Of a stretch of DNA of 64,000 bases, positions 5,785 to 35,039 are shown piece by piece. The notes beneath the pieces are model-generated. The model saw only the letters and a list, made by a program, of their open reading frames with translations. It was not told where the DNA came from and searched no databases. The DNA lies in the IMG/VR virus record IMGVR_UViG_3300036401_000412; one strand, given 5' to 3'. Source of the DNA: an uncultured virus (IMG/VR IMGVR_UViG_3300036401_000412) (taxonomy: Duplodnaviria > Heunggongvirae > Uroviricota > Caudoviricetes). Each line of letters starts with the position of its first letter. Within the stretch, counting starts at the first letter, position 1. Position numbers and translations under genes: made by a program.

Positions 5785-5787
5785 GGA

Positions 5788-6051: not shown

Positions 6052-6061
6052 CGCGGCCCCC

Positions 6062-6771: not shown

Positions 6772-6791
6772 GACTTGTTTCTCCGCCGTTA

Positions 6792-7896: not shown

Positions 7897-8420
7897 GGCG
7901 TCGGCACCAGCGGCGGTATCAGACCGCCGCCATACAGCGGTAGATACACCTCGGGGAACGGCTGCGGCCCGAGGAAGTAGCGGAAGGTGCGATACTGCGC
8001 CGTCGCCACCCAATACATCGCGCCGTAGCGGGTCTGATAATACCACGCGGCATTCGGCCCGTCGCCCGATCCCATGTCGCCGAAGCTGACCGAGACCGAG
8101 CCTTCCGAGGCGGACTGGATACGCCCGACCACACCGGCCCCCTGCCCTGCCGCCACCTGCCCGCACGGATCGAGGCCGCCGTTCAGTGCCGCGATGTGCG
8201 CGGTCAGCATGTCGAGATAGGTGGCGCGCGGCCCGGTCGGCGTCTGCGTCGAATCATACGGCACCGGGGAGCCTGCGGTGTTGTCGCAGAACACGCACGC
8301 GTCGTCGAAGAACCCCTGGGCGCGCGGCTGGGTGACGGCGCCGAACTCAGGGTAGCGCTGCATCCAGTGCTGATAGTCGAAGATGACGACGTGCGGGTCC
8401 GGCGTGACCGTGACGCTCAT
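7884..8420 (-). CDS. Head-tail adaptor (DUF4054-like)
   Basis: Motifs RYPEF, LTAHIAAL, GRIQSASEGSVSVS and QTRYG. Confidence 0.8.
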   Translation of the reverse strand: MSVTVTPDPHVVIFDYQHWMQRYPEFGAVTQPRAQGFFDDACVFCDNTAGSPVPYDSTQTPTGPRATYLDMLTAHIAALNGGLDPCGQVAAGQGAGVVGRIQSASEGSVSVSFGDMGSGDGPNAAWYYQTRYGAMYWVATAQYRTFRYFLGPQPFPEVYLPLYGGGLIPPLVPTPWRR

Positions 8421-11042: not shown

Positions 11043-11085
11043 GACGGTATCTCCTACTCGGTGGGTGGGGTGACGCGCGCGGTGC

Positions 11086-11601
11086 TCAGCCGAGCAGGCC
11101 ACTGCTCATCTTGATCAGTTCATTGGGACCGCCTGCGGTGGCGGCGATGAACTTGGTCTCGGTGAAGTTGGCAATGGTCGCGCCAGCGGCGGCGAATTGC
11201 GTGCCTGCATTGTTGGTGTTGCCGGCGAACGCCTTCATGCCGACCACCACCGCGCCCGCGCCTTTGTTGCGCACCCAGAAATCACCGCTGGTGAACGCAT
11301 TGCCGACCGGGAAGCCGGACGGGATGAAGAACGTCGCGCCACCGGGTGAGCCGGAACCATACATAAGGCCGTTGAATCCGGTCAGCACGTTAGCGATGAA
11401 CGCACTCGGCAGCCCGGCCCCGGTTCCCGACAGCAGTGTGTTGGTCGCGTCGACCCAGGCGAACTGGGCAATGAACACGCCGCCCGCACCGGCCTTGAAG
11501 CCACCCTCCACCGAGAGCAGCGAGCGACGCGGGTTGGTCGACGCAAACTGACCATCGACGGCCAGCGCCTGAGTGATGTTGATAGCGGTTTGAAACGTCA
11601 T
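11086..11601 (-). CDS. Capsid decoration/cement protein
   Basis: Between scaffold and capsid genes. Motifs FQTAIN…GQFASTNP…GDFWV. Confidence 0.75.
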   Translation of the reverse strand: MTFQTAINITQALAVDGQFASTNPRRSLLSVEGGFKAGAGGVFIAQFAWVDATNTLLSGTGAGLPSAFIANVLTGFNGLMYGSGSPGGATFFIPSGFPVGNAFTSGDFWVRNKGAGAVVVGMKAFAGNTNNAGTQFAAAGATIANFTETKFIAATAGGPNELIKMSSGLLG

Positions 11602-11616
11602 CGATGCCTCCTGCTA

Positions 11617-13173
11617 TTAGTGCTTGACCAAGCGGTTGGCATTGGGGAACCGCTCCAGGTAATCCTTGTTGCCACTGGCATCCATCGCGTGATGCGGCAT
11701 GCCGTTGCGCGGTTGCGGTTCACCGGGCTTGGGGATTTTGCCGAGCAACGCCTTGTAGGCGGACGGATGGATGTCTTTGACATCCTCGCCCATCTGCTCC
11801 AGCGCAAACTTGTAAACCTCGGTGGCGCTGTCCATCGCCACCGCGATGTCACCGACCCACGGCCGCACGAAGGTCTTCGCAAGGTCGCGGGCGTTCAATC
11901 GTTCGGTGGTCTTGCTGATCGCATCGGTGACGGCTTTCTGAATGGCCGCGTCCATCGCGACCTTGGTGACCGGCGTCTTGTCCATCGCGGGGGTATCTCC
12001 ATTCCTGGCGGTGTCGGGCTTGGGGATCACGCCATCCTCATCAGCGGCGCCGTCCAGTTTCTTGTCGTCGTTGCCGTCGCCGTTGTCGGCACTGCCGCCG
12101 TTGCTGTTGCCGTTGCCGTTGCCGTTGTCCGGCGGAGCGGCGGGTTTCAGTGCCTTCAGGATGATCGCCAACGTTTCGTCGTCGACCTTGCCGGCAAGCG
12201 CCGCCTGCACGGTCGCAGCGACATCACCGCCGCCACCGCCGGCATTGGGATCGCCGTTGCCGTTGGCTGGATCGCTGCCCTCGGCGGCCGCACCGCCGAC
12301 CGCGAGGCCGCCGCCACCGTTGGGGTCACCGCCGCCATTGGGATCGGCTGCCGGATCATCGGTCGGGGCCGCCGCGCCTGCGCTGCCGAGATGCTCATGG
12401 ATGTGCACCTCGGCGTCGTTCGCCATCTTGCCCTTGAGCGCACGCGTGAGCGCGGCCTCGATCTCGGGCCGCTTCTCGGTCCAGTTCTTCGCCGTGGTGC
12501 CGGCGAGGATTTTCTTGAGGTCGGGCGGCTTCTGATCCTGCGCCATCTTCGGCGCGAGATAGGCGTGGGTCGAGCCGGCAATGAATGCCGCATAGGGCGA
12601 CAGGCGCATCATGATCTCCTTCGGTTTGCTGTCCATCACCACGACGTCGCTGCCGGCGCGCCCGTCCTGCACGAGTGCCACGTGATTGCCGATGATCTCC
12701 GTCATCACGCCGTCGTATTGCTGACCCAGGTAGTTGCCGGGGGTCATCACCGGTGTGTAACGATATGCGCTGCTCAGTTCGCGCATCTGGCCGGTCTCGA
12801 TCAGCGCGATTGCGTGGCTCGACCAGAACACCAGCGAGTTGTCGAGGTAGGGCGCGCGCCATGTCGCGTCGGTGCCGGTGGAGCCGATCACCCGCTCGCG
12901 GTTTTCGTCCTGTGCAGTGACCGGAATGTGCTGGTCGAGGATTTTCAGGTTGTTGAAAGTGGCGGCTGCCTTCTGCAATTCCGCCGGATGGCGCAGCAAC
13001 TGATACATGCGATAGGGATCGAGACCGAGTTGCTGCCAGCCCGGTATTTCCCGGCCGTGGTAACCGTTCACGCATGCCTTGGTGATGTGGCTGACCGCGA
13101 CATGCAGGTGACCGTCGCGGTCGTAGCTGCGCACCGAGCGATCGAGTGCCATCGTGATGGCGTCAAATGGCAT
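11617..13173 (-). CDS. DUF2213 prohead protease/scaffold protein
   Basis: Motifs RSYDRDGHL, RELSSAY and NHVALVQDGRAG, followed by a low-complexity scaffold-like C-terminal half. Confidence 0.88.
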   Translation of the reverse strand: MPFDAITMALDRSVRSYDRDGHLHVAVSHITKACVNGYHGREIPGWQQLGLDPYRMYQLLRHPAELQKAAATFNNLKILDQHIPVTAQDENRERVIGSTGTDATWRAPYLDNSLVFWSSHAIALIETGQMRELSSAYRYTPVMTPGNYLGQQYDGVMTEIIGNHVALVQDGRAGSDVVVMDSKPKEIMMRLSPYAAFIAGSTHAYLAPKMAQDQKPPDLKKILAGTTAKNWTEKRPEIEAALTRALKGKMANDAEVHIHEHLGSAGAAAPTDDPAADPNGGGDPNGGGGLAVGGAAAEGSDPANGNGDPNAGGGGGDVAATVQAALAGKVDDETLAIILKALKPAAPPDNGNGNGNSNGGSADNGDGNDDKKLDGAADEDGVIPKPDTARNGDTPAMDKTPVTKVAMDAAIQKAVTDAISKTTERLNARDLAKTFVRPWVGDIAVAMDSATEVYKFALEQMGEDVKDIHPSAYKALLGKIPKPGEPQPRNGMPHHAMDASGNKDYLERFPNANRLVKH

Positions 13174-13410: not shown

Positions 13411-13791
13411 TCACCCCAGAACTGGCGCGACCGTCATGGTGAGGTCACGAATGTATAGACGGCCCTGATAGGTGGTGTTCACCATCAAGGTCACCCAGTA
13501 GGGCACGCCGGCCGAGCCTTGCGGCGCGGTGAAGCCCACCGTGATGCGCAGACCAGACACGTCGAGCGAGTTGGGCCAGTTGGCACCGGCCAGCTTGAGA
13601 TCGCTGGATGTCATCGCTTCGTCGTCGACGCGCGCGATGGCGATGGTCACGGCGGTGATGTCGGGGATGCTGTCACCCACCACGCCGAGATCGGTCGAAA
13701 CGTCGATATAGCGCCCGTCGGTCTCGCCCGCGCGGAGCGGCGGGATCGGCACCGGGTTATAGTTGGGCGCGCTGCACGCATCGAAGCTCAT
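13411..13791 (-). CDS. Fibre adaptor/base-like protein
   Basis: Coupled (ATGA) to the giant repeat gene. Beta-sandwich-like pattern D.RYID…GDSI…G..Y.VT…T..GR…R. Confidence 0.55.
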   Translation of the reverse strand: MSFDACSAPNYNPVPIPPLRAGETDGRYIDVSTDLGVVGDSIPDITAVTIAIARVDDEAMTSSDLKLAGANWPNSLDVSGLRITVGFTAPQGSAGVPYWVTLMVNTTYQGRLYIRDLTMTVAPVLG

Positions 13792-16700: not shown

Positions 16701-19700
16701 CGGCCGCAGCGGCGTTGCGGTGGCGAGCACGAAGCCCTCGCCGTCGATCTCCAGCGTGATCAGCGCCCGGGTGGTGAGCGCCGGGATAACGAAGCCCTCG
16801 CCGTCGATCTCGGCGGACGCGGCGCGTGCCGGTCTCGCATCGACCTGTAGCGAACCGAGACCGGCGATCCGCGCCTGGGCAGGCAACAAACGACCGGGCG
16901 AGGTGGTGACGAAGCCCTCGCCGTCGATCTCGCCAGCGGCGGGCAACAGCAGTCGCGCGCCGGCATCGATGCCGCGCATCCACGGCCCGAATATGCCAGC
17001 TGGCGGCAGGATTAGCTGGGTGGCGAGTGCGCCCCATTCCTGTTGCAGCCCACCGATCCGCAACGTGAAATCGATCGCCAGCGAGCCTGCGTTGAAGAAC
17101 GCGTAAATGACCGGAACCATAAAAGCTCCGGTCGCGGATGAGGTCCACGACACCGCGAACCTTTGGGTGCCGAGCGTCACGCCGCCGGGTAAAGTGAACA
17201 GGACAGCGTTGCCACTAATATAGGTCTGGTCGCTGGCGCGATCCTGTTGAGAAAGCTGCACCCGGTTGACGTTGGTGAGGTCGCCTCCCACCAAGCGGCA
17301 ATAGAGCGAGGATGTTGAGGTAAGACCGGGGAAGCTTTGCGGCTGATTGGGGCCGATAGCGCCTTCTGGCAGAATATAAGAATTTGCTGTCGCCGTTGAT
17401 ATACCATGCCAGCGGATATCGACGTAGGACAGCCCGTCCTCGACGCCGATGCTGACAACATCCCACGCCATCGGATCGCCACCAACCACCCAGAAGGTCG
17501 GACGCAAGCCACCCGATCCGACGACACCGACGACCGCGCCTTCCAGACGCGGGTTGCGGATGTAGTTGGTCTTGCCGCCGCCTTGGCCATCGATCTCGGC
17601 GGACGCGGCGACAAAGCGCGATGACACCGTGGCACGCACACCACCAACACCGTTGATCCGCGCGGCGGCCGCGCGCATCGGCTGGCCGTCAGCGGCGACA
17701 CTCCCGACGCCCGCGATGCGGGCCTGCGCCTGGGTGGCGAACGCCGACGGCGTCGCGGTGATAAAGCCCGCGCCGTCGATCTCGGCGGACGCCGGGCGCA
17801 ACGGTGTGACGTTGGCGCGCGGCGTGCCGACGCCGTCGATCTCGGCGGACGCGGCGCGGGTCGAGAACACCGTCGCGGCGAAACTACCAACCCCCGCGAT
17901 CCGCGCGCTGGTCGGCACCCGGCCGAGCGGAGCGGGCACCACGAAGCCCTCGCCGTCGATCTCGGCGAGACCGCGCATGGTTTGCGTGGGCGCCGCCGCC
18001 AGCGTGTCAGGCACCGCTGCCCAGAGCGAGGTGTAAAACGATGTCGCGGTCGGATCGACCGGGCGGCAGACCATGCTGAACGTGCCGGCGCCGACCGGTG
18101 ATGTCGGCAACTGATACGAAACCAGTTGCCACTGATTGGTCAGCGTGAGATCGGCGTATTGATCCGGCGTAAAGGGATAACTGAGGTTTGGATAAGCAAG
18201 CCCCTCGACGGGGAAATGCAGTTCGCTGCCCGCCCAGCCGGCCGGCAGCCACACCCACACGTTGATCGTGTAGGGGATGTTCAGTGGTCCGGTGGTGTTG
18301 CCCAGCGCGCCGCAGTTGGTGGCGTTGGTGCTGTTGAACGCGGTGTGTTTGAACACCAGCGAATTGTCGCCAAATGGCGACGGAATGTCGGTCGAGACGA
18401 CGCACGTATTGGGCGTTTGTGGCCCTGGCGTTCCTCTCGCGTTGAGCCGGTTGCCTTCGCCGCCATTGATGACGGCGCGGGCGAATTGCAGGCCGCCACC
18501 GGTCGCGGAGACGAAGCCTTCGCCGTCGATCTCGGCTTGCGCGCCAGCCCGCACCACGGCGGTCGCCCGCACATTGCCGGCGCCACCGATCTGCCCTTGC
18601 GCGGTGGTGATTTTCGCCGCCGCCGCGCGCAGCGTGCCGACGCCGTTGATCTGGGCGAAATTCGCCACCGTCGGCATCGCCAGCAAGCCGCGTGTAAATG
18701 GGCCGAAATTCGCCGCGCTCGGCACAGCCACCGGGGTGCACACCGAACCGGCTTCCAACTGAATGCCGGCGATGCGCAGGGTGAAATCGACCGCCGCACC
18801 CTGGGTGTAGCCGAACGCAATGACCGGCCAGACATACCGCGTATCCGGATACGCGGTCGGCATCGTTCGATTGGCCAAGAAGAACCGTTGCAGCGACGCG
18901 GTGGGTGTGAAGTTGATCTGCCCGGTGCCGGCGAGATTAACCCCGGTCGCACTGATGGCGTAGAGTATCTGCCCCATCGCCACGTTGCCGGCGGCAAGCG
19001 AGCCACCGACCAGCGCCACATACATCGACATCGACCAGATCGCGCTGGGCTGGGTCGGGATCGCCGTGGTGAGATCGAGCCGAAGGGTATTACCGCTCGA
19101 CGTTGGCGTCGCGTTGAAGCGGATGTCGACGTAGTTCAGCGTCTTGGCGTCGTCATCGGTGACGACGGTGCCGGTGCCGACCACGGTCCAACTGGCTGCC
19201 GTGTTGCCCGCCGACCAGTTGGTCGGCAGCGTGCTGGTGCCGACGACGCCACCGATGCCGTTCGGATTGGTCATCCAATTCGTAAAACCACCGATGCCAT
19301 CGATGCGCGCCTGCGCCGCGACCAGCGTGGTGGGTTGCGCCAGCAACGCGCGCGTCGTTACTCCAGGCGAACCGAGCGGCGGCAGGATCGGCGGCGTGAC
19401 AACCGGGTTGCTTTCGAACTGCGGCGCGGCGATCCGCAACGTGAGATCGATCGCGTTGCCGATGGTAAGTTGGAACCACAGCACCGGACATACGCGGCGG
19501 ATCGTGGCGCCGACCGGGGTCACGCGGTTGCTGATCGAGAACCGCTGCAACGTCGCGGTCGGCGTGAATTGCGTTGAACCCGTGTTGGTAACAAGAGTGC
19601 CGGCCGTGGTGAGGTATAAAACGACCTGACCGACACTCAACAGATTGACGGTGGAACCACCAACCAGCGCCGCATGGACAGATTGCGACCAGCCATCACC

Positions 19701-22650: not shown

Positions 22651-23046
22651 TTATGCCAGGGTGATAATCAAGGCGCCTGCGCTGAACACCAGCGAGTCAC
22701 CCGCATTGAGCGCGCGCGCCGTGGTCAGCGTGCCATACCACAGCATGTTGCCACCCGACGCCGCCACCGTGTCCCACACCTGCAAGCCGGAGATGGTTGC
22801 CGATGAAAGGATCGGACCGAACGTCATCGCGTTGGTGTTGGAGCACGAACCGGCGGGTGACGCCGCCGCCGCCATTTGCAGCGTCTGGCGCGTCATGCCG
22901 GAGCCGGTCGGGAGTTCAGACCCGGAGATCGATGAGGGCACCCCCAAGCTCAGTCCAACGCTCCATGACGTCGGGCGCGTCGCCGCCACCGCGTCTAGGC
23001 TCCAGTCCAGCATCGCCTTTTGCAGATACGCCGAGATGCCCGCCAT
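22651..23046 (-). CDS. Small fibre-associated structural protein
   Basis: SAYLQKAMLD…L.L..P…E…G..RQ…N…FG…WD…GGN.LWYG pattern seen in small phage fibre proteins. GGAG SD. Confidence 0.7.
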   Translation of the reverse strand: MAGISAYLQKAMLDWSLDAVAATRPTSWSVGLSLGVPSSISGSELPTGSGMTRQTLQMAAAASPAGSCSNTNAMTFGPILSSATISGLQVWDTVAASGGNMLWYGTLTTARALNAGDSLVFSAGALIITLA

Positions 23047-24076
23047 GATCCTCTCCTTTCAAAGCGGCCCTCGCCGCGTGAAACACTGCTTCGTGGGTGA
23101 TGTCCGCGATGCACGCGGCCGCCTCGGCGTTCGCCGCCTTGCGGCAGGTGGCCACGGTGTCGTGCAGTTGGTGGCACGGCCAGCAATCGACGCGCACCCG
23201 ATCGGCGTGCATCGTCCGTGTGTTGATCCAGTGCTTGGTGATGTTCTCCGGGCTGGCGTGGGAAAGCAGCATGATCTTGGGCATCGCTTCCATCGCGACC
23301 CCCCACATCAGGCCGGTGTCGGGACCGATCACCAGATCGCATTGTTGCAGCGTCGCGAGTGAGCGCCGGATCGGCCACGACGGCTTGTCCTTATCGGGCG
23401 AGATCGCCGCGTGCATACCACCGTAGCTACCGTTGTATTCGGCCACGAAATCCTGCACGTGCTCGGCGATCTTGCTTTCGGTCTCCGATCCGAACATCAC
23501 CACGGCAACGCGCAACTCGCGGATGAGTTTGACGATGAGCATGGGCATGTAGGGCCAGATTTTGTCGAGGCGCGAGCCGGACAGGCTGATACCGACAACA
23601 TGACGAACGCCGCCAGCACTGCGTATCGTGTCCAGCGTGCGTTTGGCGTGGTCGGTCTCGGCTGGTGTCGGATAGAAGCGCGGCGCGAAGTCATGACGCA
23701 CCTCGGCGATGTCGTGGATGAACTCCAGATAGTTGATGCCGCAATGCGCCCGCCGCCACGACGCCGGCCAGTAGAACGCGGTTTGTCCGGGTAACAGCGC
23801 GAGCGAGGTTTCGCAGCTATGCGAGAGGTTGATCCAGCGTTCGTATTCGCGGCCGCGATGCGCGAACCACGCCTGCCACTGATCGCCCTGCGGCAGATCG
23901 CCCGGCTCGCGCACGGTGAGTTTGCTGATGCTTGGATGGTTTAAAAACGTAACGTGCTGCGGCGACTGCGCCATCATTTCGACGTGGTATTTTTCGGCGA
24001 GCAGCGGCAGCACCGAGGACGCCATGAGATTGTCGCCGATGCCGCCCATGCGGGCTACAAGGCACCAGGGCTTCAC
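22916..24076 (-). CDS. Glycosyltransferase family 9 (heptosyltransferase-like)
   Basis: N-terminal RMGGIGD, C-terminal DLVIGPDTG and a CWPCH…C…C cluster. The 3' end overlaps the next gene by 131 nt. Confidence 0.85.
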   Translation of the reverse strand: MKPWCLVARMGGIGDNLMASSVLPLLAEKYHVEMMAQSPQHVTFLNHPSISKLTVREPGDLPQGDQWQAWFAHRGREYERWINLSHSCETSLALLPGQTAFYWPASWRRAHCGINYLEFIHDIAEVRHDFAPRFYPTPAETDHAKRTLDTIRSAGGVRHVVGISLSGSRLDKIWPYMPMLIVKLIRELRVAVVMFGSETESKIAEHVQDFVAEYNGSYGGMHAAISPDKDKPSWPIRRSLATLQQCDLVIGPDTGLMWGVAMEAMPKIMLLSHASPENITKHWINTRTMHADRVRVDCWPCHQLHDTVATCRKAANAEAAACIADITHEAVFHAARAALKGEDHGGHLGVSAKGDAGLEPRRGGGDAPDVMERWTELGGALIDLRV

Positions 24077-25506: not shown

Positions 25507-25856
25507 CAGAACCCCGGCGCGCGATAGCCGGCGACGTGCTGCACCGCCGCCCAGAACGCACGGGCGGCTTCGGTCAGGGGGAGGCCGTCGGGGATCATCA
25601 CCTCGCCGGTCTCCAGGTCGATCTGGATACCGCACGGATGCAGTAGCAGGTGGTCCGGCGTCGGCTTCAATGTCTGGATCGTCACGCCGTCGAGCGGCAT
25701 CACGATGTCAGCGGCCCGGATGGTCGCTGTGATCGCATCGGCGATCGAGCGGTCGACGTAGGCTTTGGCGACGTCACTGCCGCTGGCGGCACCACCAACG
25801 CGCAGCGCGCCTTCGCTCATATCGATATCGCCCAGCAACGGCTCCAGTTTGTCCAT
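25503..25856 (-). CDS. Hypothetical protein
   Basis: TGATG coupling to the MuF gene. Confidence 0.6.
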   Translation of the reverse strand: MDKLEPLLGDIDMSEGALRVGGAASGSDVAKAYVDRSIADAITATIRAADIVMPLDGVTIQTLKPTPDHLLLHPCGIQIDLETGEVMIPDGLPLTEAARAFWAAVQHVAGYRAPGFW

Positions 25857-26659
25857 CAGTCGAACCCCTCGATCACAGGCCGCGAGCTACAGCGACAGTT
25901 GATCTCAAAGCCGGGCCACGTCCAACGGCCCTCAAGATACGCCCCGCGTGCCACCTCGTATATCGGCCCACTCGGGCCTGGGGTATACTTGCCCCTGGAG
26001 AACGCCAGATGCTCGGGGCGGAAATGGCCCGGGGCTGTAATGTTGCTGTGCATCCAGTGGGCGCGCTTGATACCGGCCTGGGTCTGCCGGGTCTTGGTGA
26101 TCACCGAGTTCAGCTTGAAGGTCTGATCCTTGGCGATCAGCGTCGCGCGCTTTTTCGGCAGATCGAATTGCTCGCGCAGTTCCTTTTGCAGCGCGTGGAT
26201 GTCGTTGCCCTTCTGCACGTTGCGCATCACCAGCCCCTCGACGCGCTGGAGGTGCTGGGCCGCGATCGACTTGATCAAGCCGACGTTCTCGGTGACGGCG
26301 GCCCGCATGATCACGTTGATCTCGGGCGATACCTTGAACTCGACCGTCCAGCCGGCCTGATCGAGCAGTTGCTCCATCCGCTGGGTGGTGTGCGCGACCG
26401 CGCGGCCGCCCCACTGGCCGGCGACGTCGGGCGCCAGTTCGTCGAAGTTCGACTGCCAGCGCCGGCCCAATTCCTTCATCGTGGTGATGATACGCTGGGC
26501 GCCGCGCGGGTCTTCCTGCCAGCGGGCCGACAGCCAGTAATCGAGCGAGTTGTTCATCGCGTCGATCGCGCGCCAGAGCCTGGAACGGTAGACCGCGCCG
26601 ACCCCGGCGTTGGGATGCACGGGTGGGAGAACCTGGGGTTTCTTGGGCGGCACCGCCAT
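25856..26659 (-). CDS. MuF-like (SPP1 gp7) minor head protein
   Basis: ENVGLIKSI, RATLIAKDQ, RPEH and PG.EINCRC motifs. Confidence 0.88.
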   Translation of the reverse strand: MAVPPKKPQVLPPVHPNAGVGAVYRSRLWRAIDAMNNSLDYWLSARWQEDPRGAQRIITTMKELGRRWQSNFDELAPDVAGQWGGRAVAHTTQRMEQLLDQAGWTVEFKVSPEINVIMRAAVTENVGLIKSIAAQHLQRVEGLVMRNVQKGNDIHALQKELREQFDLPKKRATLIAKDQTFKLNSVITKTRQTQAGIKRAHWMHSNITAPGHFRPEHLAFSRGKYTPGPSGPIYEVARGAYLEGRWTWPGFEINCRCSSRPVIEGFD

Positions 26660-26682: not shown

Positions 26683-26910
26683 TTACTCCTCGGCGGGCTG
26701 TGCAGGCCCCACGTCGGCCTCGGCGGCTTCATCGTCGGGATCGGGCGGCGCCGGGTCGACCGAGGTCACGCGCGGCATGGTGGTGGCATGCGGGATGCCG
26801 AGGCTTTCCGCCTCGCCGTCCCAGATCACCTCGCCCTCGGCCGCGTCCTCGCTGTCGTAGGACACGATCGTCATGCCGGTCGTCGAGTTGGGTTGCCGTT
26901 CATCGGCCAT
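26683..26910 (-). CDS. Small acidic protein
   Basis: 75 aa starting 1 nt after the portal-ART stop codon; very Asp/Glu-rich. Confidence 0.55.
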   Translation of the reverse strand: MADERQPNSTTGMTIVSYDSEDAAEGEVIWDGEAESLGIPHATTMPRVTSVDPAPPDPDDEAAEADVGPAQPAEE

Positions 26911-26911
26911 G

Positions 26912-29900
26912 CTACAGCCCGTTGCGCGCCTTCACGATATACTGGTCTTTGCCAGGAACCTTTTGGATTTCATAGACTTCCAAGGCGGTCCCGTGGCGCA
27001 GTATTACTTCGTTTTCGTGTTCAAAGCTAGCACTGGCTGCCCACAGCCCGAGCGCGCGGGTGCCCTTCCGGGCGGTGATCTGCCATTGCACCTTGTTGTC
27101 GCGCCAGCCGGACGGTGGCGCATAGGACGCGGCCGTGGACATGAAGCCCTTCACCTGCGGCCGCACCAGCTTGCCCATCGTGAGGTCGGCGATCATCTTG
27201 TCGACCTTCTGCTGCGGCATATTCTCACCGCGCCAGACAATCAAATCCTGCTGCAACACAGCATCGTCGTGTTCGAACAGTTCCTCGATATGATTGATTT
27301 GCTCCTGATAGTGCGCCGGTATTGGTGCGTCGCTTTCGTCCGCCTCGCGGAGTGAGCCGTTGACGCCGCCGGAGCCGCCCTTGTAGCTCTTGCAGGCTTC
27401 CCGTTGCGCCGCCGGGACTTTCTTCCACCAGTTGCGGTTGAGCGTCTTGGCGGCCGTGAGCACGACCGGATCAGCCGCGCTGTCCACCTTGATCGCCGCC
27501 GCCTCGTGTTTTTTGGCGCGCGCCAACATCGACGCGTTCGGCGTCACGTGCAGCCCGGTGCCGGCAGGTTTCGGTGCGGCGGGAGCCGGTTTCGGTGCCG
27601 CTGCGGGTTTCGGCGCGGCAGCCGGTGTCGCGGCTGGCGCGGCTTTACCGACGAAGCCGACACCCGGGATCGGCTCGCCGCCGAGGTGCTTGATCCAGGA
27701 ATTGGCGAATTTCGCGGTATAGGCGTCGGGATACTCCACCACCGTGGGATACGCCTTCATCGCGGCGATCTTTTCCTCGGTGGTTTTGGTCGGATCGGTG
27801 GCGAGCGCATACACCTTCGGCTGGTGCTTGGAGGCGGTGTTCGGCTCCAGTTCGGCTGGGGTCGGCGCGGGCGCGGCCGGCGCGGCGGCGGGTGCCGGCT
27901 CGGGCGCGGGTTCCGGCTCGGCCGCCGCCATCTGCTCCATCTCGGCCTCGGATGGCGCGCCCTGCGCGGGTGGGCCGCCGTCTTTCTTGGCCTGCGCCTT
28001 GCCCAGCGAGCCTTTGGCGTGGCCGTGGTGCTGCTCCAGGTGGCTGATCAGTTGGTTCAGGTAGCCGGACACGTTGGTGGACTTGAAGTTGCTGGCATGA
28101 CCCTTGATCGTCGCCACCAGTTCGTGCGGCGACTCGGCACCTGACGCCATGTGGTGCTCGACCGCCTGCTTCATCTTGGCGCCGATCGGGCCGGCATACT
28201 TGGTCAGTTCCGGCGCCGGCTTGAACGGCTTCGGTGCGGCCCCACCGCCGCCACCGGTCTCGCCGGCCCCCTTGGTGAACTGGCCGGTCTTGGCGCGCGG
28301 ATGAGCCTCCTCATCCCACTCGCCGATCATCGCATCCATCGCGCGGAGCGGCGCCATCGCCGTGTCCTGTGCCGGATCGTCGGCCGGCAGGTCCGCCACC
28401 CGCTGGGCGATGTCGTCGCGCCGGGCGATCAACCGCTGCGCCAGTGCCGCCTTGGCCGCCGCGTCGCCCGGGCCGTGCTTGGCGACCAGCGCCTCGATCA
28501 CATGGGAGGGGATCGCGGTCACGTTGGCCGCCGAGCGGCGCAACTGGCTGGGCGTCATCTCGCCGAACAACTCGTGCGCCTGGGTGGCATCCGGCAGGCC
28601 GGACACCGAATGGCGCATCGACTCCCATTCACCGACGGTATCGCCGAACGCCGCCCCCTTGGGGCCGCCCTGGGCGCGATACAGCAGGCTGCCGCCGGTA
28701 TCGAGCGTGTGCATCACGCCGTCGATGCGCGCCTGATTGTCGTGCGTCAGACCGGGCGCGTCCCAGTTCGCCAGCCACGCATGGGTGGCGAAGTTGCGCT
28801 GTGCGTCGCGCCGGTCGGTCTTCGATTTCGGGTTGATGTCGGTCTTCGACTGCCATTCGGACGCGGTGCCGAGCTTGCCGCCGACGTCGGCCGGCATGGT
28901 GTGCAGCACAGGCGCGCGGGCCGCCTCATACAGCCGGGTGGCGAGCAGTTCGTTTTTGGCGTGATCCTCGGATTTCGACTGCTTGGCGTAGAATTTCCGG
29001 CCGTGGTCGTCCTCGTATTGGCCGCCCGGGTTGGAGCCAAGCTGACCGCCGATCTTGCTCATCGGCTTGAGATCGAGGGGTGCCTCCTCATCGGCGCCCT
29101 CGATCACGTGCTCGGCGATCTTGCGGTCGATCGGCTTGTTGAGGTGCTGGTGGAGTTCACCCGGCGGCACCAGCGAGACGCCCTCGGTCTCCCAGCCGTG
29201 CCCGTCCGGCGTGCCGCCGATCCGCTTGGCGTAATAGTAGCGCGCCTGGGAGGTGTCGCGCTGGGCGTCGCCGGCAAACCCGGTCAGTTCCACCCGCAGC
29301 CCGGACTCTTCGAACGCTTCCTTGATCGCGGTCGAGCGCAGCGTGTCACCAGAGTCCACACCACCCTTGGGGAACGACCCCTTATAGCCGCCATAGCCGC
29401 CCTTCGGCCGGATCATCCAGACGCGGCCGTCGGGTTCCTGGATGATCACGCCGGCACCCTGCTTGCGGCCGCCCTTCAGCGCCGGCACGTCCGGCTCATC
29501 GAACTCTGGCCCCTTGTCCGCCTCGGCCTGCCAGCCCGCGCTGGTGGTCGGGTGGTCGTGCCAGTGGGCAAACTTCACCCCGTGCAGCGAGCCGCTGGCC
29601 GGCTTGCTCTTGGTGAAGGTCTGCGCGCCGGATGCGACAGCCTTGCTGCCGGAGGTTTCATGGGAAACACCCGACAGTGATGCTGACCCACCGCCGGAGC
29701 CGAACTGGCCGTTATCGGCGCGCTTGACCTTGCTTTCGTCCCATTCGGCGGCGTCGGCGCCGAGCTTGAGCGCCTCATCGGGGTTGTCGTTGGCGCCGAG
29801 TTGGATGTGGCCGCGATCGTCCGGCCCGAGATGCACATGCACCTCGGCGTCGGGGTCTTGGGTGACCACGCGGACGTGGCCCTCGCCCGGCTTGAGGCCG

Positions 29901-31678
29901 TTCTCATCTTCCTGATCGCCGCTGCCCTTGGGGTTGGGCGGCTTCGGCGAGCCGGCCGGGCCGAGATGGCCGGGACCGGACGTCACGGGCGCGGGCGAGC
30001 CGCCGGCAGGCGTCGGGCCACCGCCCGGGGCACCCGGCGCGCCGGGACCGCTGCCGCCACCAGGACCGCCTCCAGGCCCGCCGCTGGGATCGCCCCCAAG
30101 GCCGGCCAGCGGATCGCCTTCCTGCGCGGGCGGCGTCGGCGCGGGTGTGGTGAGATCGAGGCCCTGATACGGGCTGTCGCTTTCGCCCGACAGTTTCTGG
30201 CGGATTTCGTCCGGCGACAGCACGCCCGCGTTGACATAGACCGCGTCGAGGTCGGCGTCGGATTTTCTCGCGGCTGCTTCCTCTTGTTCCGACATCTCGC
30301 GCAGCGGTTCCCAGGCGTGCGTGATGTCGGGATCGATCGCGCCCCACAGGCTCAACTGCATGACGTTGAGCACGGTGGTGAGGTTGGTATCGAAGAACGA
30401 GGTCTGGCTGGCGTGGATGAACTGCGCCCAGACCTGGAGTTCGCCCTCGCTGGTGGCGTTGAGGCCCGACGGCGAGATGCCGAGCAGCACCACCAGCGGG
30501 ATACCGACGGCGGACGCCATGTGCTCCTGCGACTGAGCTTGCAGGTGATCGAGCGAACCGAGCGGCGCCGAGACATTCTTGAAATCCTCGGTGGTCTTGT
30601 CGAGCACCATCAGATTGTTATTGTCTCGGAAGAAATTGAATAGCTGGGCGCGCATCCTCATCTGGTCGGTGGCGCCGGAGTTCAGCACGCTGCCCATGTT
30701 CGTCATCATCACGGGCGTCGAGAAACTATGAATAAGATCGGACACCGACTGACGGGTGCGCAGCCAGTTGTCCACATACGGCTTCGCCATCTGCGACAGT
30801 GACAGACCAGCGAATGAGTAAGCCGGCTTGAGCATGTCCGGCATTTCGCGACCGATGAACGGCAGCACCCGTGTGCGATGGATTTCCTTGCCCATCACCC
30901 ACCACGTCTGCGGCAGGTAGAAACTTTCTTTCAGCGGATCGGATGCGTTATACATATTCGGATAGCACCAGATCGGCTCGACCACGCGGATGCCCTTGAG
31001 GCCGCCTTTCTGGATCATGCGCGGATCGACCGGCAGCGGCAGCTTCATGAGGTCGCGGTCGTCGCCCTGGCCGGTGTCGATGTAGAGATGGCTGCGACCG
31101 AAGAACCCGTCGAGCAGCGCCAACAGCGTGAATTTCTCGCGCAGCTTGTGCGCTTTGATGCAGTCCTCAAGTTCGGCGATCTTGTCGCTCTTGTCGTCCT
31201 TGCCCTTTGCTTGCAAACGAAACCATCTGCGGGTCATGTCCTTCGCGATGGTCTCGCTGATGCGGCGATACTCGGTGCGCTGGGCGAGTTCGGCGAGGTA
31301 GGGAAAGCCGAGCCAGAACATGCCCTCGGTGACGTTGCCGTAGCCGAGATAGCCGCCCTGCTGCATCGGGTTGTTGAAGTCGTCCATCGCCATCGGACGG
31401 ATGCCATCGGGCACCACGCCGCGCGGTGGTTCGGCGGGACGGAACAGCCGCTCCATGTCCGCAGCGGTGGCGGAGCGGGTCGAGTAAAGCTGGAACGGTG
31501 TCACCTGGGCGTCGCGGATCGCCCCCATGCCGACCAGCGCCTGATACATCGCGGTGGCGTCGAATGTGGGCTGCGCTGGCGGCGCCGGAGGCGGATCGGA
31601 CGCGGGTCGAGTCAGCGATGCGGCATCACGCGCGAGGAGGCCAAGCAGGCCGCCAACAAAGGATTGCCACAGCGACAT
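26912..31678 (-). CDS. Portal protein (DUF1073-like) fused to NUDIX, kinase-like and ADP-ribosyltransferase domains
   Basis: Lies between terL and MuF. Residues ~1-505 have portal motifs (IHRTR, IPLVVLLGISPSGLNATSEGE, PLREMSEQE). Also present: Nudix box FPKGGVDSGD…KEAFEESGL, kinase-like NELLA..LY/WLANWD/DTGG, and ART motifs WRG/FMST/ENE. Confidence 0.88.
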   Translation of the reverse strand: MSLWQSFVGGLLGLLARDAASLTRPASDPPPAPPAQPTFDATAMYQALVGMGAIRDAQVTPFQLYSTRSATAADMERLFRPAEPPRGVVPDGIRPMAMDDFNNPMQQGGYLGYGNVTEGMFWLGFPYLAELAQRTEYRRISETIAKDMTRRWFRLQAKGKDDKSDKIAELEDCIKAHKLREKFTLLALLDGFFGRSHLYIDTGQGDDRDLMKLPLPVDPRMIQKGGLKGIRVVEPIWCYPNMYNASDPLKESFYLPQTWWVMGKEIHRTRVLPFIGREMPDMLKPAYSFAGLSLSQMAKPYVDNWLRTRQSVSDLIHSFSTPVMMTNMGSVLNSGATDQMRMRAQLFNFFRDNNNLMVLDKTTEDFKNVSAPLGSLDHLQAQSQEHMASAVGIPLVVLLGISPSGLNATSEGELQVWAQFIHASQTSFFDTNLTTVLNVMQLSLWGAIDPDITHAWEPLREMSEQEEAAARKSDADLDAVYVNAGVLSPDEIRQKLSGESDSPYQGLDLTTPAPTPPAQEGDPLAGLGGDPSGGPGGGPGGGSGPGAPGAPGGGPTPAGGSPAPVTSGPGHLGPAGSPKPPNPKGSGDQEDENGLKPGEGHVRVVTQDPDAEVHVHLGPDDRGHIQLGANDNPDEALKLGADAAEWDESKVKRADNGQFGSGGGSASLSGVSHETSGSKAVASGAQTFTKSKPASGSLHGVKFAHWHDHPTTSAGWQAEADKGPEFDEPDVPALKGGRKQGAGVIIQEPDGRVWMIRPKGGYGGYKGSFPKGGVDSGDTLRSTAIKEAFEESGLRVELTGFAGDAQRDTSQARYYYAKRIGGTPDGHGWETEGVSLVPPGELHQHLNKPIDRKIAEHVIEGADEEAPLDLKPMSKIGGQLGSNPGGQYEDDHGRKFYAKQSKSEDHAKNELLATRLYEAARAPVLHTMPADVGGKLGTASEWQSKTDINPKSKTDRRDAQRNFATHAWLANWDAPGLTHDNQARIDGVMHTLDTGGSLLYRAQGGPKGAAFGDTVGEWESMRHSVSGLPDATQAHELFGEMTPSQLRRSAANVTAIPSHVIEALVAKHGPGDAAAKAALAQRLIARRDDIAQRVADLPADDPAQDTAMAPLRAMDAMIGEWDEEAHPRAKTGQFTKGAGETGGGGGAAPKPFKPAPELTKYAGPIGAKMKQAVEHHMASGAESPHELVATIKGHASNFKSTNVSGYLNQLISHLEQHHGHAKGSLGKAQAKKDGGPPAQGAPSEAEMEQMAAAEPEPAPEPAPAAAPAAPAPTPAELEPNTASKHQPKVYALATDPTKTTEEKIAAMKAYPTVVEYPDAYTAKFANSWIKHLGGEPIPGVGFVGKAAPAATPAAAPKPAAAPKPAPAAPKPAGTGLHVTPNASMLARAKKHEAAAIKVDSAADPVVLTAAKTLNRNWWKKVPAAQREACKSYKGGSGGVNGSLREADESDAPIPAHYQEQINHIEELFEHDDAVLQQDLIVWRGENMPQQKVDKMIADLTMGKLVRPQVKGFMSTAASYAPPSGWRDNKVQWQITARKGTRALGLWAASASFEHENEVILRHGTALEVYEIQKVPGKDQYIVKARNGL

Positions 31679-31684
31679 GCCACC

Positions 31685-33097
31685 TCATCGGCCTGGGGGG
31701 ATGTGGATGCCGAGTGCGCGCAGCGCATCGGGATCGATGTTCATCGGCGGCTGCTCGACGATGGCGTTAAACGCACGCGAGGTGGCGTCCGGGTCATCGT
31801 CGTGGGCACCGTCGGGGAAGTTCTCCAATTCGGTGAACCACCGCTCATTCCAGCGCCCGCGCAGCACCAGCACATTGCCCACCTCGGCCTGCGCCGAGAA
31901 CGGCCCGAACCGCGTCACCTTGTCGCCCGATTCGGGCGAGTTCACCACGATGAAGCCCTGCAACAGATGCGTCATCGCCACCACCTGGGCGACGCCCGAC
32001 TGGCCGGGGTCTTTCGGGATCGAGGTGGTCGCCTCGCGGCCGTCCTGCTGGGCGTAATTCAGCACGCGACGGTTCACCTCGGCCGGGCTGCCACGGAACG
32101 CATCGGCGTGCAGCACGATCCAGCGACCGTCGTGCATCACGCCGATCTTGACGGTCGAGGTCCAGTCAGGATCGTTGTTGTCTTTCTGCTCGGTCGCGGC
32201 GAAATCCCAGCCGCGCACCACGCGCACGCACACGGGCGGGATGTCGACGATCTGGCACCATGAGCGGTTGAAGTAATAACCGGCACTCGGGCGGATTTTC
32301 CAGTTGCCGTTGAGCAGCCGCTCGCGCTCCACCTTGGCGAGCAGCATGAGATTGCCGAGATAGCCCGGATCGTTGCGCATCAGCGCCGGATTGTCGGCCA
32401 GCTTGGCGGCTATGAATGTGAAGGATTTGATCGTTTCCTTCGATTGCCCGGTGGCCGCCATCGCGGCCGCCTTGCTGTCATACCAGACCAGTTGATCGTC
32501 GGCGCCGCGCACGAAGTAGCGCACCACGCCGGAGCGTTCCGCGATCGGATAGCCGGTCGCGGGATTGACCCACCACGCGATCAGGTCGGCGACCCATGAG
32601 CCGGCGTCCGCGTTGCAGGTGGCGCGTATATACGGACGTATGCCGCTGGGCGAGCGGTTGCGGGAGATCAGGTAGAAGAACTGATCCTTGGTGAAGGTGG
32701 TCAGTTCATCGAAGCAGATGCAGCCGATCTGGCTGCCGTGCCAGTCGAACACCGTGTTCGGGTGCTCCAGGTGCGCCAGCTTGACGCTGCCCTTGCCGGG
32801 CCAGCGCCATTCCATCCGGTGCATCACCGGAAAGCCGCGCGCGAAGTAGTAGAGCTTCTCGGTCTCTGACCACAGGCCGCCGGGGCGGCGCAGATCGACC
32901 AGGGTGCGGCGGAAGATCACGGTGTCGAACGCCGTCACCTTCTGCGGGTAGCGCATGCCCTCCAGCAACAGCGCGTAGGACTTGCCGGAGCCGGCGGCGC
33001 CACCGAACACCGCGATATCAGCCTCGGTGTTGAGGAAGACTTCCTGCGGCCCGGCCTGCGGCCCGATGCGGCGCTCGACCCGGCCGCCATCAGGCAT
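31685..33097 (-). CDS. terL: Terminase large subunit
   Basis: Walker A GGAAGSGKS, Walker B ICFDE, and nuclease motifs GWDFA and HDDDPDA. Confidence 0.93.
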   Translation of the reverse strand: MPDGGRVERRIGPQAGPQEVFLNTEADIAVFGGAAGSGKSYALLLEGMRYPQKVTAFDTVIFRRTLVDLRRPGGLWSETEKLYYFARGFPVMHRMEWRWPGKGSVKLAHLEHPNTVFDWHGSQIGCICFDELTTFTKDQFFYLISRNRSPSGIRPYIRATCNADAGSWVADLIAWWVNPATGYPIAERSGVVRYFVRGADDQLVWYDSKAAAMAATGQSKETIKSFTFIAAKLADNPALMRNDPGYLGNLMLLAKVERERLLNGNWKIRPSAGYYFNRSWCQIVDIPPVCVRVVRGWDFAATEQKDNNDPDWTSTVKIGVMHDGRWIVLHADAFRGSPAEVNRRVLNYAQQDGREATTSIPKDPGQSGVAQVVAMTHLLQGFIVVNSPESGDKVTRFGPFSAQAEVGNVLVLRGRWNERWFTELENFPDGAHDDDPDATSRAFNAIVEQPPMNIDPDALRALGIHIPPGR

Positions 33098-33159: not shown

Positions 33160-33687
33160 TCAGGCATCGTCGGTGCCGGTCTTGTCGGGCGTATCCTCGT
33201 AGGTGCCATCGATCGTCGGCGGCTCAGGCTCCGGTCGGTCGCGGCCGTTCTCCGGCAGGTAGAACCGCACCACCTCCTCGCCGGAGACGTCGTCGCCGAA
33301 CGGCTCGGGGGTCTCCTCGCTGCCCTTCGGTATCTGCCACTCGGAGCCGCCGTGGGTCTGCAACCAGTAGCGCGCCGCCGACATATTGCCGGCCAACGCT
33401 TCCTTCACCACCACGAAGCCGACGCGTTGCACGATGCGCGCCTTGCCGGCCTTGATGTCGGGCTTGAAATACTTGTCGAGCGTGTGGACGTTGATGCGCA
33501 GCGCGTCCGCGATATCCGGGCGCGTCGCACCGTTGGCGGCGAACACCATCGCGATGTGGCGCTGCTCGGGGGTGGGCACGAAGGTCGGGATGCGGTTGCC
33601 GGGGCCGCGCCCTTCGCCACGCTGCATGCGCGCGGCCGGGCTGTCGGGATCGGGCGGGAACAGGCGTCTGATCTTCTGCTTGCTCAT
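33160..33687 (-). CDS. terS: Terminase small subunit
   Basis: HTH (IADALRINVHTLDKYF) and AARYWLQT.GG.EW; directly upstream of terL. Confidence 0.8.
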   Translation of the reverse strand: MSKQKIRRLFPPDPDSPAARMQRGEGRGPGNRIPTFVPTPEQRHIAMVFAANGATRPDIADALRINVHTLDKYFKPDIKAGKARIVQRVGFVVVKEALAGNMSAARYWLQTHGGSEWQIPKGSEETPEPFGDDVSGEEVVRFYLPENGRDRPEPEPPTIDGTYEDTPDKTGTDDA

Positions 33688-35039
33688 TCGGCGGCTGCCA
33701 TCTCAGGGTCGCGGTCACGGATATCGCCGATCGCGGCGAAGGTCTCCCCGGTGCCGTGCAGGATCGCCGGCTGCCCGGTGAAATCCTGCCAGCGTATGAT
33801 TGCTAAGTCGCAATACTTCGGCTCGATCTCGATCGCGTTGCAGGCCCGCCCGGTCATTTCGCAGGCGATGATGGTGGAGCCGGCGCCGACGAACGGATCG
33901 AGCACGATGTCGGCGGGATCGCTGAACGCCTCGATCACCGCCTGGGCGAGCGCCACCGGGAACACCGCCGGGTGATCGGTCGAGCCGTTGAACCGGTTCA
34001 CCCGGAATACGCTGTCGGCGACCTTGTTGGGGTCACGGGTGCTGGCCTCCGGCGCGGCGGGTCTCACCACGCCGTCGGCGCCGCGCAGCACACCGCCTGT
34101 GCGGGTGCGGCCGATGTTCTTCGGCTGCTTGGCGACCGACTTGCGGGCGCGCTGCTCGCCCGTGCGGTTGAAGTGGAAGATGAACTCGTGCGAGGGGCCG
34201 AGCCGGCCGCGCCAGTCGCCCGGCAGGCCGAAGCCTTGGTCCCAGACATACCAGCCGAAGCGGCGCCAGCCGCGCGCCCGCATCCAGGCGATCCAGCCGT
34301 CCCAGTAGGCCGACCACTCGCCGTCGCGGTGCACGAGGCCGAGGTTGACCAGCACCTGGGCGGTCTCGGTCACCGGCAGCGACCGGAACGCGCCCTCCAT
34401 CAGCACGTCCCAGTTGCCGACGCCGGCCTCATAGGTGCGCTGGGTCAGGTAGGGCGGTGAGGTGAAGCAAAGATCGGCGCGGACCATGTCGGCCGTCAGA
34501 CGCGCGTCGGTGGCGTCGCCGCACTTGAGGCGGTGATTGCCCAGCCGCCACACGTCCCCGGCCTGGGCGATCGGCAGGGCGGGCGCGGCGGGCACCTCAT
34601 CGGGGTCGGTCAACCCCACGGTGCGCTCGGCGAACAGGGTGTCGAGTTCCAGGCCGGAAAACCCGGTGAGCGAGAGGTCGAAGCCCTCCAGCTTGAGATC
34701 GCCCAGTTCGGTGCGCAACAGGTCGGCGTCCCAGCCGGCGTTGAGCGCCAGCTTGTTGTCGGCGACGCGGTAGGCGGCGATCTGGGCGGCGCTCCAGCCC
34801 CGCGCCACCATCACCGGCACCGAGGTGAGCTTGAGCTTGCGCGCCGCCAGCACGCGGCCGTGGCCGGCGATCAGGGTGCCCTGCTCATCGACCAGCACCG
34901 GCATCGCGAAGCCGAACGCGGTGATCGAATTGGCAAGCTGCTCGATCTGCTCGGGCGAATGGGTGCGGGAATTGCGGGCGTAGGGGATCAGCGTGTCGAG
35001 GTCGCGGCGTTCCACGCGGTCGGCGGGCCAATCGGGCAT
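33684..35039 (-). CDS. ParB-like domain fused to a DNA N4/N6 methyltransferase
   Basis: N-terminal PYARN.RTH…IAGHGR…ADNK (ParB/Srx). MTase motifs TSPPY, HPAVFP and DPFVGAGS. Confidence 0.9.
   Translation of the reverse strand: MPDWPADRVERRDLDTLIPYARNSRTHSPEQIEQLANSITAFGFAMPVLVDEQGTLIAGHGRVLAARKLKLTSVPVMVARGWSAAQIAAYRVADNKLALNAGWDADLLRTELGDLKLEGFDLSLTGFSGLELDTLFAERTVGLTDPDEVPAAPALPIAQAGDVWRLGNHRLKCGDATDARLTADMVRADLCFTSPPYLTQRTYEAGVGNWDVLMEGAFRSLPVTETAQVLVNLGLVHRDGEWSAYWDGWIAWMRARGWRRFGWYVWDQGFGLPGDWRGRLGPSHEFIFHFNRTGEQRARKSVAKQPKNIGRTRTGGVLRGADGVVRPAAPEASTRDPNKVADSVFRVNRFNGSTDHPAVFPVALAQAVIEAFSDPADIVLDPFVGAGSTIIACEMTGRACNAIEIEPKYCDLAIIRWQDFTGQPAILHGTGETFAAIGDIRDRDPEMAAAE

Follow-up and report, generated by a model that had tools for sequence, protein, structure and literature searches.

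A single gene in a 64,000-nucleotide stretch of DNA from an uncultured Caudoviricetes virus (IMG/VR record IMGVR_UViG_3300036401_000412; the whole stretch is hereafter the window) encodes a phage portal protein that continues, in the same reading frame, into a NUDIX domain, a protein-kinase-like (PKL) domain, and a C-terminal ADP-ribosyltransferase (ART). The fusion (P0001; Table 1) is one intact gene and not an assembly slip. It is read here as a portal-anchored "polyvalent protein", in which the portal serves as the loading dock for a string of host-directed enzymes, and a probability of roughly two in three is assigned to this reading.

The gene starts with an ATG, preceded by a GAGG and placed 7 nt past the stop codon of TerL, and the translation of the minus strand meets zero in-frame stops over 1588 codons, with a GC content at third codon positions (GC3) of 0.78-0.93 in every 100-codon block. 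The full-length frame recurs with identical sequence in 2 other IMG/VR viral contigs (L022, L023), and partial copies are present in the IMG/VR loci L024, L025, and L041. Moreover, at least half of the sampled words of the stretch are present in 23 soil or rhizosphere metagenome runs, and the listed contig pieces from 4 soil runs that are not flagged as possible sources of the record (X8, X9, X10, X12) tile positions 26800-31800 with 0 other letters and 0 gaps, a comparison made with contigs instead of raw reads, in which rare or minority variants would be lost. Contig pieces span the joint between portal and cargo (e.g., 29132-30251 in X10 and 27379-29944 in X12), and homologues at 40-72% identity likewise encode all four domain types (portal, NUDIX, kinase-like, ART) within a single frame. 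In all 4 runs, a variant lacking small module A co-occurs, in which some contigs have 12 nt replacing the 345-nt stretch 27891-28235; the exchange (net -333 nt) is in frame and removes approximately residues 1149-1262. A programmed frameshift yielding a short portal was considered and is not claimed: residues 480-700 contain one X XXY YYZ heptamer (C CCG GGC, codon 551, ~30026), a poor slippery sequence in GC-rich DNA, and a hypothetical -1 slip at this codon, within the Gly/Pro linker, would terminate near codon 591.

Domains of the fusion protein

The portal domain is matched by PF06381 (Phage_portal_3, HI1409 family) at residues 127-479 (1.5e-84, 284.2 bits vs a Pfam cut-off of 33.8, model positions 3-356 of 357) and by phrog_146 at residues 96-523 (4.4e-109, PHROGs); the narrower NCBIfam model TIGR01555 gives 89 bits, below its cut-off of 196, as for a divergent member. 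No second portal occurs among the 47 ORFs (open reading frames) of the window scanned against PHROGs (23 + 24), so the fusion must act as the portal of the phage, as far as the 64-kb window, which may not be the whole genome, allows. The nearest solved portals (phmmer, query residues 123-508) are gp19 of Pa193 (5.6e-38) and gp19 of E217 (1.2e-37), Pbunavirus proteins of the same portal family. As described in their structural records (PDB 9B41 and 8FVH, respectively), these 765-residue proteins have a C-terminal barrel projecting into the head, and the models cover only residues 94-528 or 97-528, residues 529-765 being without density. Their C-terminal extension thus amounts to ~237 residues, whereas that of the fusion protein has ~1,080 residues and 3 enzyme domains. 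Since the extension starts just past the equivalent of the inward-projecting barrel of E217 and Pa193, the cargo is expected in the capsid interior. Likewise, green fluorescent protein (GFP) fused to the C-terminus of the T4 portal (gp20) is located inside the capsid, and up to about half of the portal positions accept such a fusion (PMC3012670). By analogy with these solved homologues, the topology argues well for a cargo that should lie inside the capsid, at up to 12 copies per head.

The NUDIX domain is matched by PF00293 at residues 738-856 (52.5 bits vs a cut-off of 21.1), and the nudix family is also matched in PHROGs. Its Nudix box (residues 772-794, G-x5-D-x7-K-E-A-x-E-E-x-G-L) has the exact spacing of the consensus GX5EX7REUXEEXGU and keeps E787, the catalytic pair E790 and E791, and G793, with D778 replacing the first E and K786 replacing R. 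The nearest solved relative by sequence is the Ap4A hydrolase 3i7u (2.5e-6), followed lower down by RppH and MutT-type enzymes, and these relatives appear to leave RNA 5'-end, dinucleotide, and ADP-ribose substrates undecided.

Residues 867-1103 are predicted to be atypical kinase-like at the level of fold and catalytic motifs. Their AlphaFold2 model (pLDDT 94.8, pTM 0.92) has a bilobal protein-kinase-like fold, for which VIA-align returns 29 chains at Z>=8, with kinases in all top rows: CtkA of Helicobacter pylori comes first (Z 14.6, root-mean-square deviation 3.7 A, 205/237 residues), followed by PI4KIIalpha (12.9), CotH (12.7), MavQ (11.4), HipA (11.4), and then Fam20, RIO kinases, and actin-fragmin kinase. 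Foldseek assigns a probability of 1.00 to CtkA, HipA, LepB, and PI4KIIIbeta. The gene of CtkA, a Ser/Thr kinase, lies on a mobile element, the integrative and conjugative element tfs3 (PMC5536186). CtkA, PI4KIIalpha, CotH, MavQ, and HipA are the best structural matches, yet their sequence identity to the PKL domain is 10-14%; Pfam gives no match to residues 861-1400 even at E<=10, and specifically the Pkinase, Kinase-PolyVal, HipA, and PI3_PI4_kinase models match neither residues 861-1588 at E<=10 nor the whole protein at E<=1. Against solved structures the PKL sequence finds a chance-level match only (RAD23, E 0.11), and an atlas search returns leads only (HipA_2 0.92, PI3_PI4 0.91). An alignment of the PKL segment of the window with 26 of the 38 short homologues collected (A1, 27 sequences) has these columns invariant in 27/27: G881-S-N-P-x-G886, Y897-x-K899, E910, N971-x-D973, N981, D993-x-G995, K1007, and E1017. 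On the predicted strands and helices these motifs follow the order Gly-rich loop, beta3 Lys, alphaC Glu, catalytic Asp/Asn loop, and Mg-binding Asp, and are matched to these elements by order only.

The C-terminal domain is, judging from its motifs, an ART of the R-S-E clade with the R, S-T, and ExE elements present. PF03496 (ADPrib_exo_Tox) matches residues 1415-1585 with 53.6 bits (cut-off 23.4), the Alt-like phrog_802 matches the fusion protein weakly (3.3e-4), and the nearest solved sequence is the C3 exoenzyme (E 0.018). Over 94 homologous ART domains the triad is kept as R in 89, S in 50 (C in 40), and each of the two E in 93. The ExE motif goes with an arginine acceptor, as in VIP2-, iota-, and Alt-type enzymes, and suggests arginine as the acceptor here. 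The two small modules between the PKL domain and the ART have no family match in Pfam scans, and an atlas search of residues 1140-1345 gave no usable match.

This architecture had been proposed, from the letters alone, by a first-pass annotation that described a single 1588-residue frame at the portal locus with an N-terminal portal domain, and the data bear it out. Specifically, no stop or frameshift after the portal, which that annotation had named as a reason to drop its proposal, is present in the contigs (not reads) of the 4 runs that cross the joint; the NUDIX and ART domains score above the Pfam cut-offs; the atypical kinase likeness returns in the AlphaFold2 fold and in its VIA-align and Foldseek matches; and the motifs it had picked out for the kinase-like domain (GSNPGG 881-886, FYAK 896-899, NELLA 909-913, WLANWD 968-973, HDNQ 979-982, DTGG 993-996) and for the R-S-E ART (R1483 in WRG, S1514 in FMST, ENE 1555-1557) all lie where it had placed them. 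Its proposal that the NUDIX domain clears alarmones or trims ADP-ribose finds no support, as the relatives of the domain (Ap4A hydrolase, RppH, MutT-type enzymes) fix no substrate.

Mosaic cargo, a joint peptide, and a kinase-like family

Homologous cargo strings are shown by sequence comparison on three anchors of the procapsid interior, i.e., the portal, the DUF2213 protease/scaffold, and MuF, with modules shuffled among the anchors. Among 8,000 candidates scored, 180 proteins are related to the cargo (residues 520-1588) at E<=1e-3, and in the 120 of them that are listed, precomputed Pfam matches place PF06381 on 14, PF09979 (DUF2213) on 9, and PF04233 (MuF) on 6; the DUF2213 anchor is the same domain as that of the head protease/scaffold of the window. 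Of 14 ORFs from related viral loci, 13 have the PF06381 portal in Pfam, with a cargo of NUDIX, one or two ARTs, GNAT, DUF7178, InPase, or unknown domains, and short unfused portals occur in the relatives L047, L077, and L083. Identity to the closest homologue, P0002, is 80% in the portal, 85% in the NUDIX, 71% in the kinase-like domain, and 29% in the ART, which is 49% identical to the ARTs of the DUF2213-anchored P0006 and P0008. The domain order also differs, with the kinase-like domain before NUDIX in P0025 and P0029 and after it in P0001, and in the loci L026-L031 (66-71% identical) the match ends at residues 630-658, beside the first copy of the joint motif described below, beyond which they carry other cargo. 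Among isolated phages, 885 records match the fusion protein, all at <60% identity and over approximately residues 68-509 only, and none of them covers 80% of it. An unusual cargo is found on P0030, a metagenome protein of 1698 residues in which the portal is fused to GNAT, kinase-like, and NUDIX domains and to the catalytic domain of a type IB topoisomerase (PF01028, PF21338).

Module boundaries are marked by a short conserved peptide, [FW]xExxHPRxxxG[KQ]F, with the longer consensus D-A-E-[FW]-x-E-x-x-H-P-R-x-x-x-G-[KQ]-F-x-x-G-G-G. Its two copies in the fusion protein are the sole matches in the six frames of the window; portal-fused homologues have HPRADNGQF at the position matching the first, degenerate copy. 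The strict form of the motif occurs 97 times, in 71 of 287 proteins, and all but one of these 97 sites fall between or beside recognised domains and not in them. A portal domain directly precedes 21 of the sites and DUF2213 precedes 7, while 23 are among the first 60 residues of their protein. F or W occupies position -5 in 84/97, and E occupies position -3 in 93/97. The motif also begins free-standing genes, including 2 separate cargo genes downstream of the unfused portal in L077 and the gene after the fusion in L026, and it is present in frames without a PKL domain (8 of the 32 motif-bearing frames). The peptide marks module boundaries and may be a processing or packaging signal; it appears to be new, as a full-text literature search for its written forms found no paper. 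T4 and phiKZ head proteases recognise short x-x-E sites and cleave behind the Glu, and the conserved [FW]-x-E before HPR would, as a hypothesis, fit such a site.

The PKL domain appears, from profile searches, to be a large and new unannotated family of at least 5,000 clusters. Among 1.84 billion proteins the number of cluster representatives matched by the A1 profile is 5,658 at E<=0.001, 5,007 at 1e-10, and 3,024 at 1e-30; most have 800-7,000 residues, and some have several PKL copies. Jackhmmer profiling of 128 newly returned top representatives, which come from the best-scoring 150 and are not a random sample, gives ART in 79, NUDIX in 36, portal in 15, DUF2213 in 8, and MuF in 4; in an earlier set of 159 proteins an ART domain is present in 94, and portal and PKL are combined in 30 of the 287 proteins collected. 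Isolated phages have the domain in 20 of 50,697 records, under features annotated "ADP-ribosyltransferase" or "hypothetical", including phage Dolphis gp117, whose gene is distant from the head genes, and in BFVD it forms part of viral proteins that go by the names of portal (HK97 type), ADP-ribosyltransferase, Nudix, or head morphogenesis. In none of the phage records and viral proteins checked does the name mention a kinase; the labels in use are "ADP-ribosyltransferase", "Nudix", "portal", or "hypothetical". A literature search found no paper on the pairing of a kinase with an ART or portal of phages, although the figures and supplements of PMC5512222 and PMC9503650 may already hold this architecture.

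Short cellular PKL forms also exist, including fusions to a DSP-type phosphatase. In 7 Rhodobacter-clade loci, the gene of such a fusion lies tail to tail with draG (ADP-ribosylglycohydrolase)-draT (dinitrogenase reductase ART). These loci are close kin and probably count as about one event, which makes the linkage a lead only; draT-draG is absent from the available flanks, some of them on short contigs, of 6 betaproteobacterial loci (L002, L005, L006, L008, L009, L018), and the betaproteobacterial homologues without these neighbours include those of Ideonella, Methyloversatilis, and a Bordetella metagenome-assembled genome. A role of the PKL domain together with ADP-ribosylation is suggested tentatively: an ART is fused in ~60% of the sampled members, and this cellular phosphatase fusion lies beside draT-draG in Rhodobacter. 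A broader claim, by which the joint motif would be a general processing or packaging signal for head-internal cargo, the place where the head protease would release each module, that makes the portal, the scaffold/protease, MuF, and free genes interchangeable docks and replaces the MPTase route, and by which the PKL domain would form a very large family of phage effectors working with ADP-ribosylation, is put forward tentatively and as the less probable outcome.

Delivery of the cargo and competing explanations

In the proposed mechanism, the C-terminal cargo of each portal subunit would hang within the capsid, and up to 12 copies would be loaded without a separate packaging signal. The string would then be cut at its linkers during head maturation or at ejection, most likely at the [FW]xExxHPRxxxG[KQ]F joints and by the DUF2213 head protease, and the freed enzymes would exit via the portal and tail together with the DNA to act at the very start of infection. 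There, arginines of host proteins may be the acceptors for the ART (ExE type, as in T4 Alt), the PKL domain may phosphorylate host targets or work jointly with the ART, and the NUDIX domain may hydrolyse a nucleoside-diphosphate-linked substrate such as an RNA 5' end or cap, or a dinucleotide or ADP-ribose-type compound. The later part of this scheme, from the cut at the joints through the exit of the enzymes to their effect on the host, is hypothetical. The first-pass annotation had about 12 copies delivered with the DNA; its interior location is well backed by the topology of the E217, Pa193, and T4 portals, while delivery, which would need release from the portal, goes beyond the data.

Several points weigh against the loading-dock reading. 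A tethered cargo would be injectable only if cut, and the cleavage sites seen here are candidates, the first of which is degenerate (VKR for HPR). Moreover, no Pfam peptidase domain is matched on the fusion protein (E<=1 for the whole protein, E<=10 for residues 861-1588). The Nudix box departs from the consensus at two positions (D for the first E, K for R), and PKL folds can also AMPylate or glutamylate. Unless processing or flexibility relieves it, the load of twelve tails of 1,080 residues may be a handicap, given that the T4 portal tolerates GFP at about half of its positions. Lastly, a literature search found no virion proteomics, cleavage, or activity data for any portal-fused effector; in the papers on polyvalent proteins, processing is ascribed to the MPTase domain (PMC5512222, PMC9503650).

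The alternative that survives best is that the cargo is packaged and never released, either as a tethered internal component of the head that aids DNA packing or ejection or modifies phage DNA or head proteins, or as an enzyme set active only in the producer cell before prohead assembly. The covalent bond to the portal is in its favour, since cleavage is a proposal, and so are the 237-residue C-terminal part of the Pa193 and E217 portals, which in their structural descriptions is simply without density, and expression late, with the head genes, which would allow enzyme action in the producer cell. However, the same cargo is found on the scaffold/protease, on MuF, and in free-standing genes of the head module, and the PKL domain of Dolphis gp117 is remote from head genes; this distribution over anchors and free genes suits a diffusible effector better than a structural part. 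In addition, a head filled with DNA provides neither the NAD+ or ATP nor the targets on which ExE ARTs and kinases depend. On this evidence a permanently tethered cargo is considered unlikely.

A still less probable explanation regards the ART tip as a polymorphic toxin of the kind found on MuF proteins of temperate phages, which would serve bacterial competition or phage exclusion, with the small acidic ORF behind the fusion gene as its immunity protein. Of the modules, the ART has diverged most (29% identity to P0002 vs 71-85% for the other domains), and it is C-terminal in 87 of the 94 cases, and the concept of MuF toxins is a precedent (PMC5576092). Moreover, a small ORF with an isoelectric point (pI) of ~4.1 lies directly 3' of the ART-bearing portal fusions of the window, L042, L049, L067, L082, L064, and L066, and follows 0/5 of the short portal-region ORFs checked (L043, L047, L054, L077, L083). 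On the other hand, there is hardly any sequence likeness among the acidic ORFs (a tblastn search with that of the window returns identical copies only), and their sample is small and phylogenetically linked; no integrase or repressor is found among the window ORFs scanned, so that a temperate life style is not indicated, and head-associated ARTs are read as host-takeover enzymes by Iyer et al. (PMC9503650). The acidic ORF could be an immunity protein, a chaperone, or a chance neighbour, and is taken as a lead only.

That the long frame is an artefact, whether through a missed stop or frameshift or through a chimeric assembly in which separate portal and effector genes became joined, is very improbable: high-GC DNA favours chance open frames, the low-complexity Gly/Pro linker is an indel-prone tract, and one X8 contig omits 29902-30121, but the full-length frame is identical in L022 and L023, contigs of all 4 runs span the joint gap-free, GC3 is uniform along the gene, and the same domain order lies in one frame in the 40-72% identical homologues.

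Genomic surroundings, known systems, and significance

The window is phage DNA throughout and holds the head module of a contractile-tailed phage, with helicase, primase, and Gam-like genes to the right of that module (Table 1); among the 47 ORFs scanned against PHROGs there is no integrase or repressor. Between the MuF-like gene and the head protease, a 2946-residue protein contains ~8 repeats of ~200-230 residues (...NYIRNPRxEGAVVG...YIDIR...LQRF...FTLRIAG.Q.E), after which come short A-x-A-x-I-D-G-x-G repeats by the dozen, with GC up to 0.745 in 14001-16000.

Table 1. Features of the fusion gene, its surroundings, and the cellular linkage; residues refer to the fusion protein and positions to the window unless a locus is named.
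Feature	Residues	Position	Strand	Remarks
Whole portal-cargo fusion gene (P0001)	1-1588	26912..31678	-	1588 aa, single ORF
Portal domain	96-523	30110..31393	-	phrog_146 and PF06381
Gly/Pro-rich linker	511-645	29744..30148	-	read from translation
Joint motif, copy 1	646-659	29702..29743	-	WDESKVKRADNGQF; degenerate (VKR for HPR)
NUDIX domain	738-862	29093..29467	-	PF00293
PKL domain	867-1103	28370..29080	-	AlphaFold2 model, alignment A1, no Pfam match
Joint motif, copy 2	1121-1134	28277..28318	-	WDEEAHPRAKTGQF; Gly run behind
Small module A	1146-1235	27974..28243	-	no family match
Small module B	1281-1345	27644..27838	-	Pro/Ala-rich linkers on both sides; aligns with P0002 residues 1539-1598
C-terminal ART	1376-1588	26915..27553	-	PF03496; R1483, S1514-T1515, E1555-N-E1557
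Acidic ORF		26683..26910	-	75 aa, very acidic, pI 4.1, 2 nt past the fusion gene
ParB-like nuclease domain-DNA methyltransferase fusion		33684-35039	-	upstream of TerS; phrog_498 1.3e-101, phrog_620 3e-50
TerS		33160-33687	-	
TerL		31685..33097	-	directly upstream of the fusion gene; phrog_979, 1.1e-145
MuF-like head protein		25856..26659	-	short, 267 aa, without toxin tip; phrog_324 3.2e-55; PF04233 39.8 bits vs 29.6
ORF in head module		22916-24076	-	386 aa; sub-threshold likeness to lipopolysaccharide heptosyltransferase (E 3e-4, 20 bits vs cut-off 185)
Repeat protein		13788-22628	-	2946 aa; no Pfam, PHROG, or NCBIfam match
DUF2213 head protease/scaffold		11617..13173	-	518 aa; phrog_2229 6.8e-125; PF09979 1.3e-44; Pa193 gp24 scaffolding protein 2.7e-6
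Minor head protein		11086-11601	-	
Major head protein		9999-11102	-	
Tail sheath		3095-4993	-	
Baseplate hub		329-1303	-	
DSP-phosphatase-PKL / draG-draT linkage		~5440-8380 of each of L003, L004, L007, L010-L013		Rhodobacter clade

T4 Alt, a free protein whose N-terminal capsid-targeting sequence is removed by the prohead protease, shares the R-S-E clade with the ART described here, which is instead the tip of the portal polypeptide itself. Alt is made late, placed in the head, and active at the onset of infection (PMC9503650). In the MuF polymorphic toxins of temperate phages, a head protein whose gene neighbours that of the portal ends in a variable toxin or enzyme domain, in many cases an ART (Jamet et al. 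2017, PMC5576092); their anchor is MuF, whereas here the anchor is the portal and MuF is a separate gene without a tip. The closest likeness is to the polyvalent proteins defined by Iyer et al. in 2017, which are encoded amid head genes and combine several effector domains in one polypeptide with a head protein as the anchor, and which include portal fusions to PBECR, 2H, and InPase (BcepF1 gp124; PMC5512222). T4 NudE-like Nudix domains fused to MuF, to the portal, and to a capsid-processing serine peptidase, as well as ART fusions to these anchors, are also on record and are read as packaged and injected (PMC9503650). The fusion protein, with 3 enzyme domains on a head protein within the head module, belongs to this class, and L043 is a portal-InPase fusion of the type cited by Iyer et al. 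from BcepF1. MPTase and LPD domains, which are frequent and not obligatory in polyvalent proteins, have no Pfam match on it, and the joint motif distinguishes it from the polyvalent proteins described. Its PKL domain also differs, by description, from the "polyvalent kinase" of the same papers, which is found in phages or prophages from the Verrucomicrobia-Chlamydia group and from Bacteroidetes and is without the entire C-terminal subdomain: the PKL domain keeps a helical C-terminal part, has NWD...DN instead of the conserved His and Asp, and has no Pfam match. The portal-anchored effector design had thus been predicted from genomes (Iyer/Aravind 2017, 2022), and the fusion is a further example of it; the first-pass annotation overstated its novelty, as portal fusions with ART, Nudix, 2H, PBECR, and InPase were already described as packaged and injected (PMC5512222, PMC9503650). 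A literature search found no portal-tethered effector with a bench study.

Effectors that are injected with the phage DNA precede any expression of phage genes and are therefore prime candidates for host takeover and for countering immunity. What makes the present gene worth attention is not so much its portal with three enzymes as the experimental candidate that it provides, the large unannotated ART-associated kinase-like family, and the candidate processing or packaging signal. As a subject for bench study it is a clean one, with 3 enzyme domains whose catalytic motifs are intact and a fixed stoichiometry of up to 12, and the profile of the PKL family, with its at least 5,000 clusters, and the joint peptide are practical handles. 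The joint peptide, in turn, could explain how multi-enzyme cargo of phage heads is cut or loaded.

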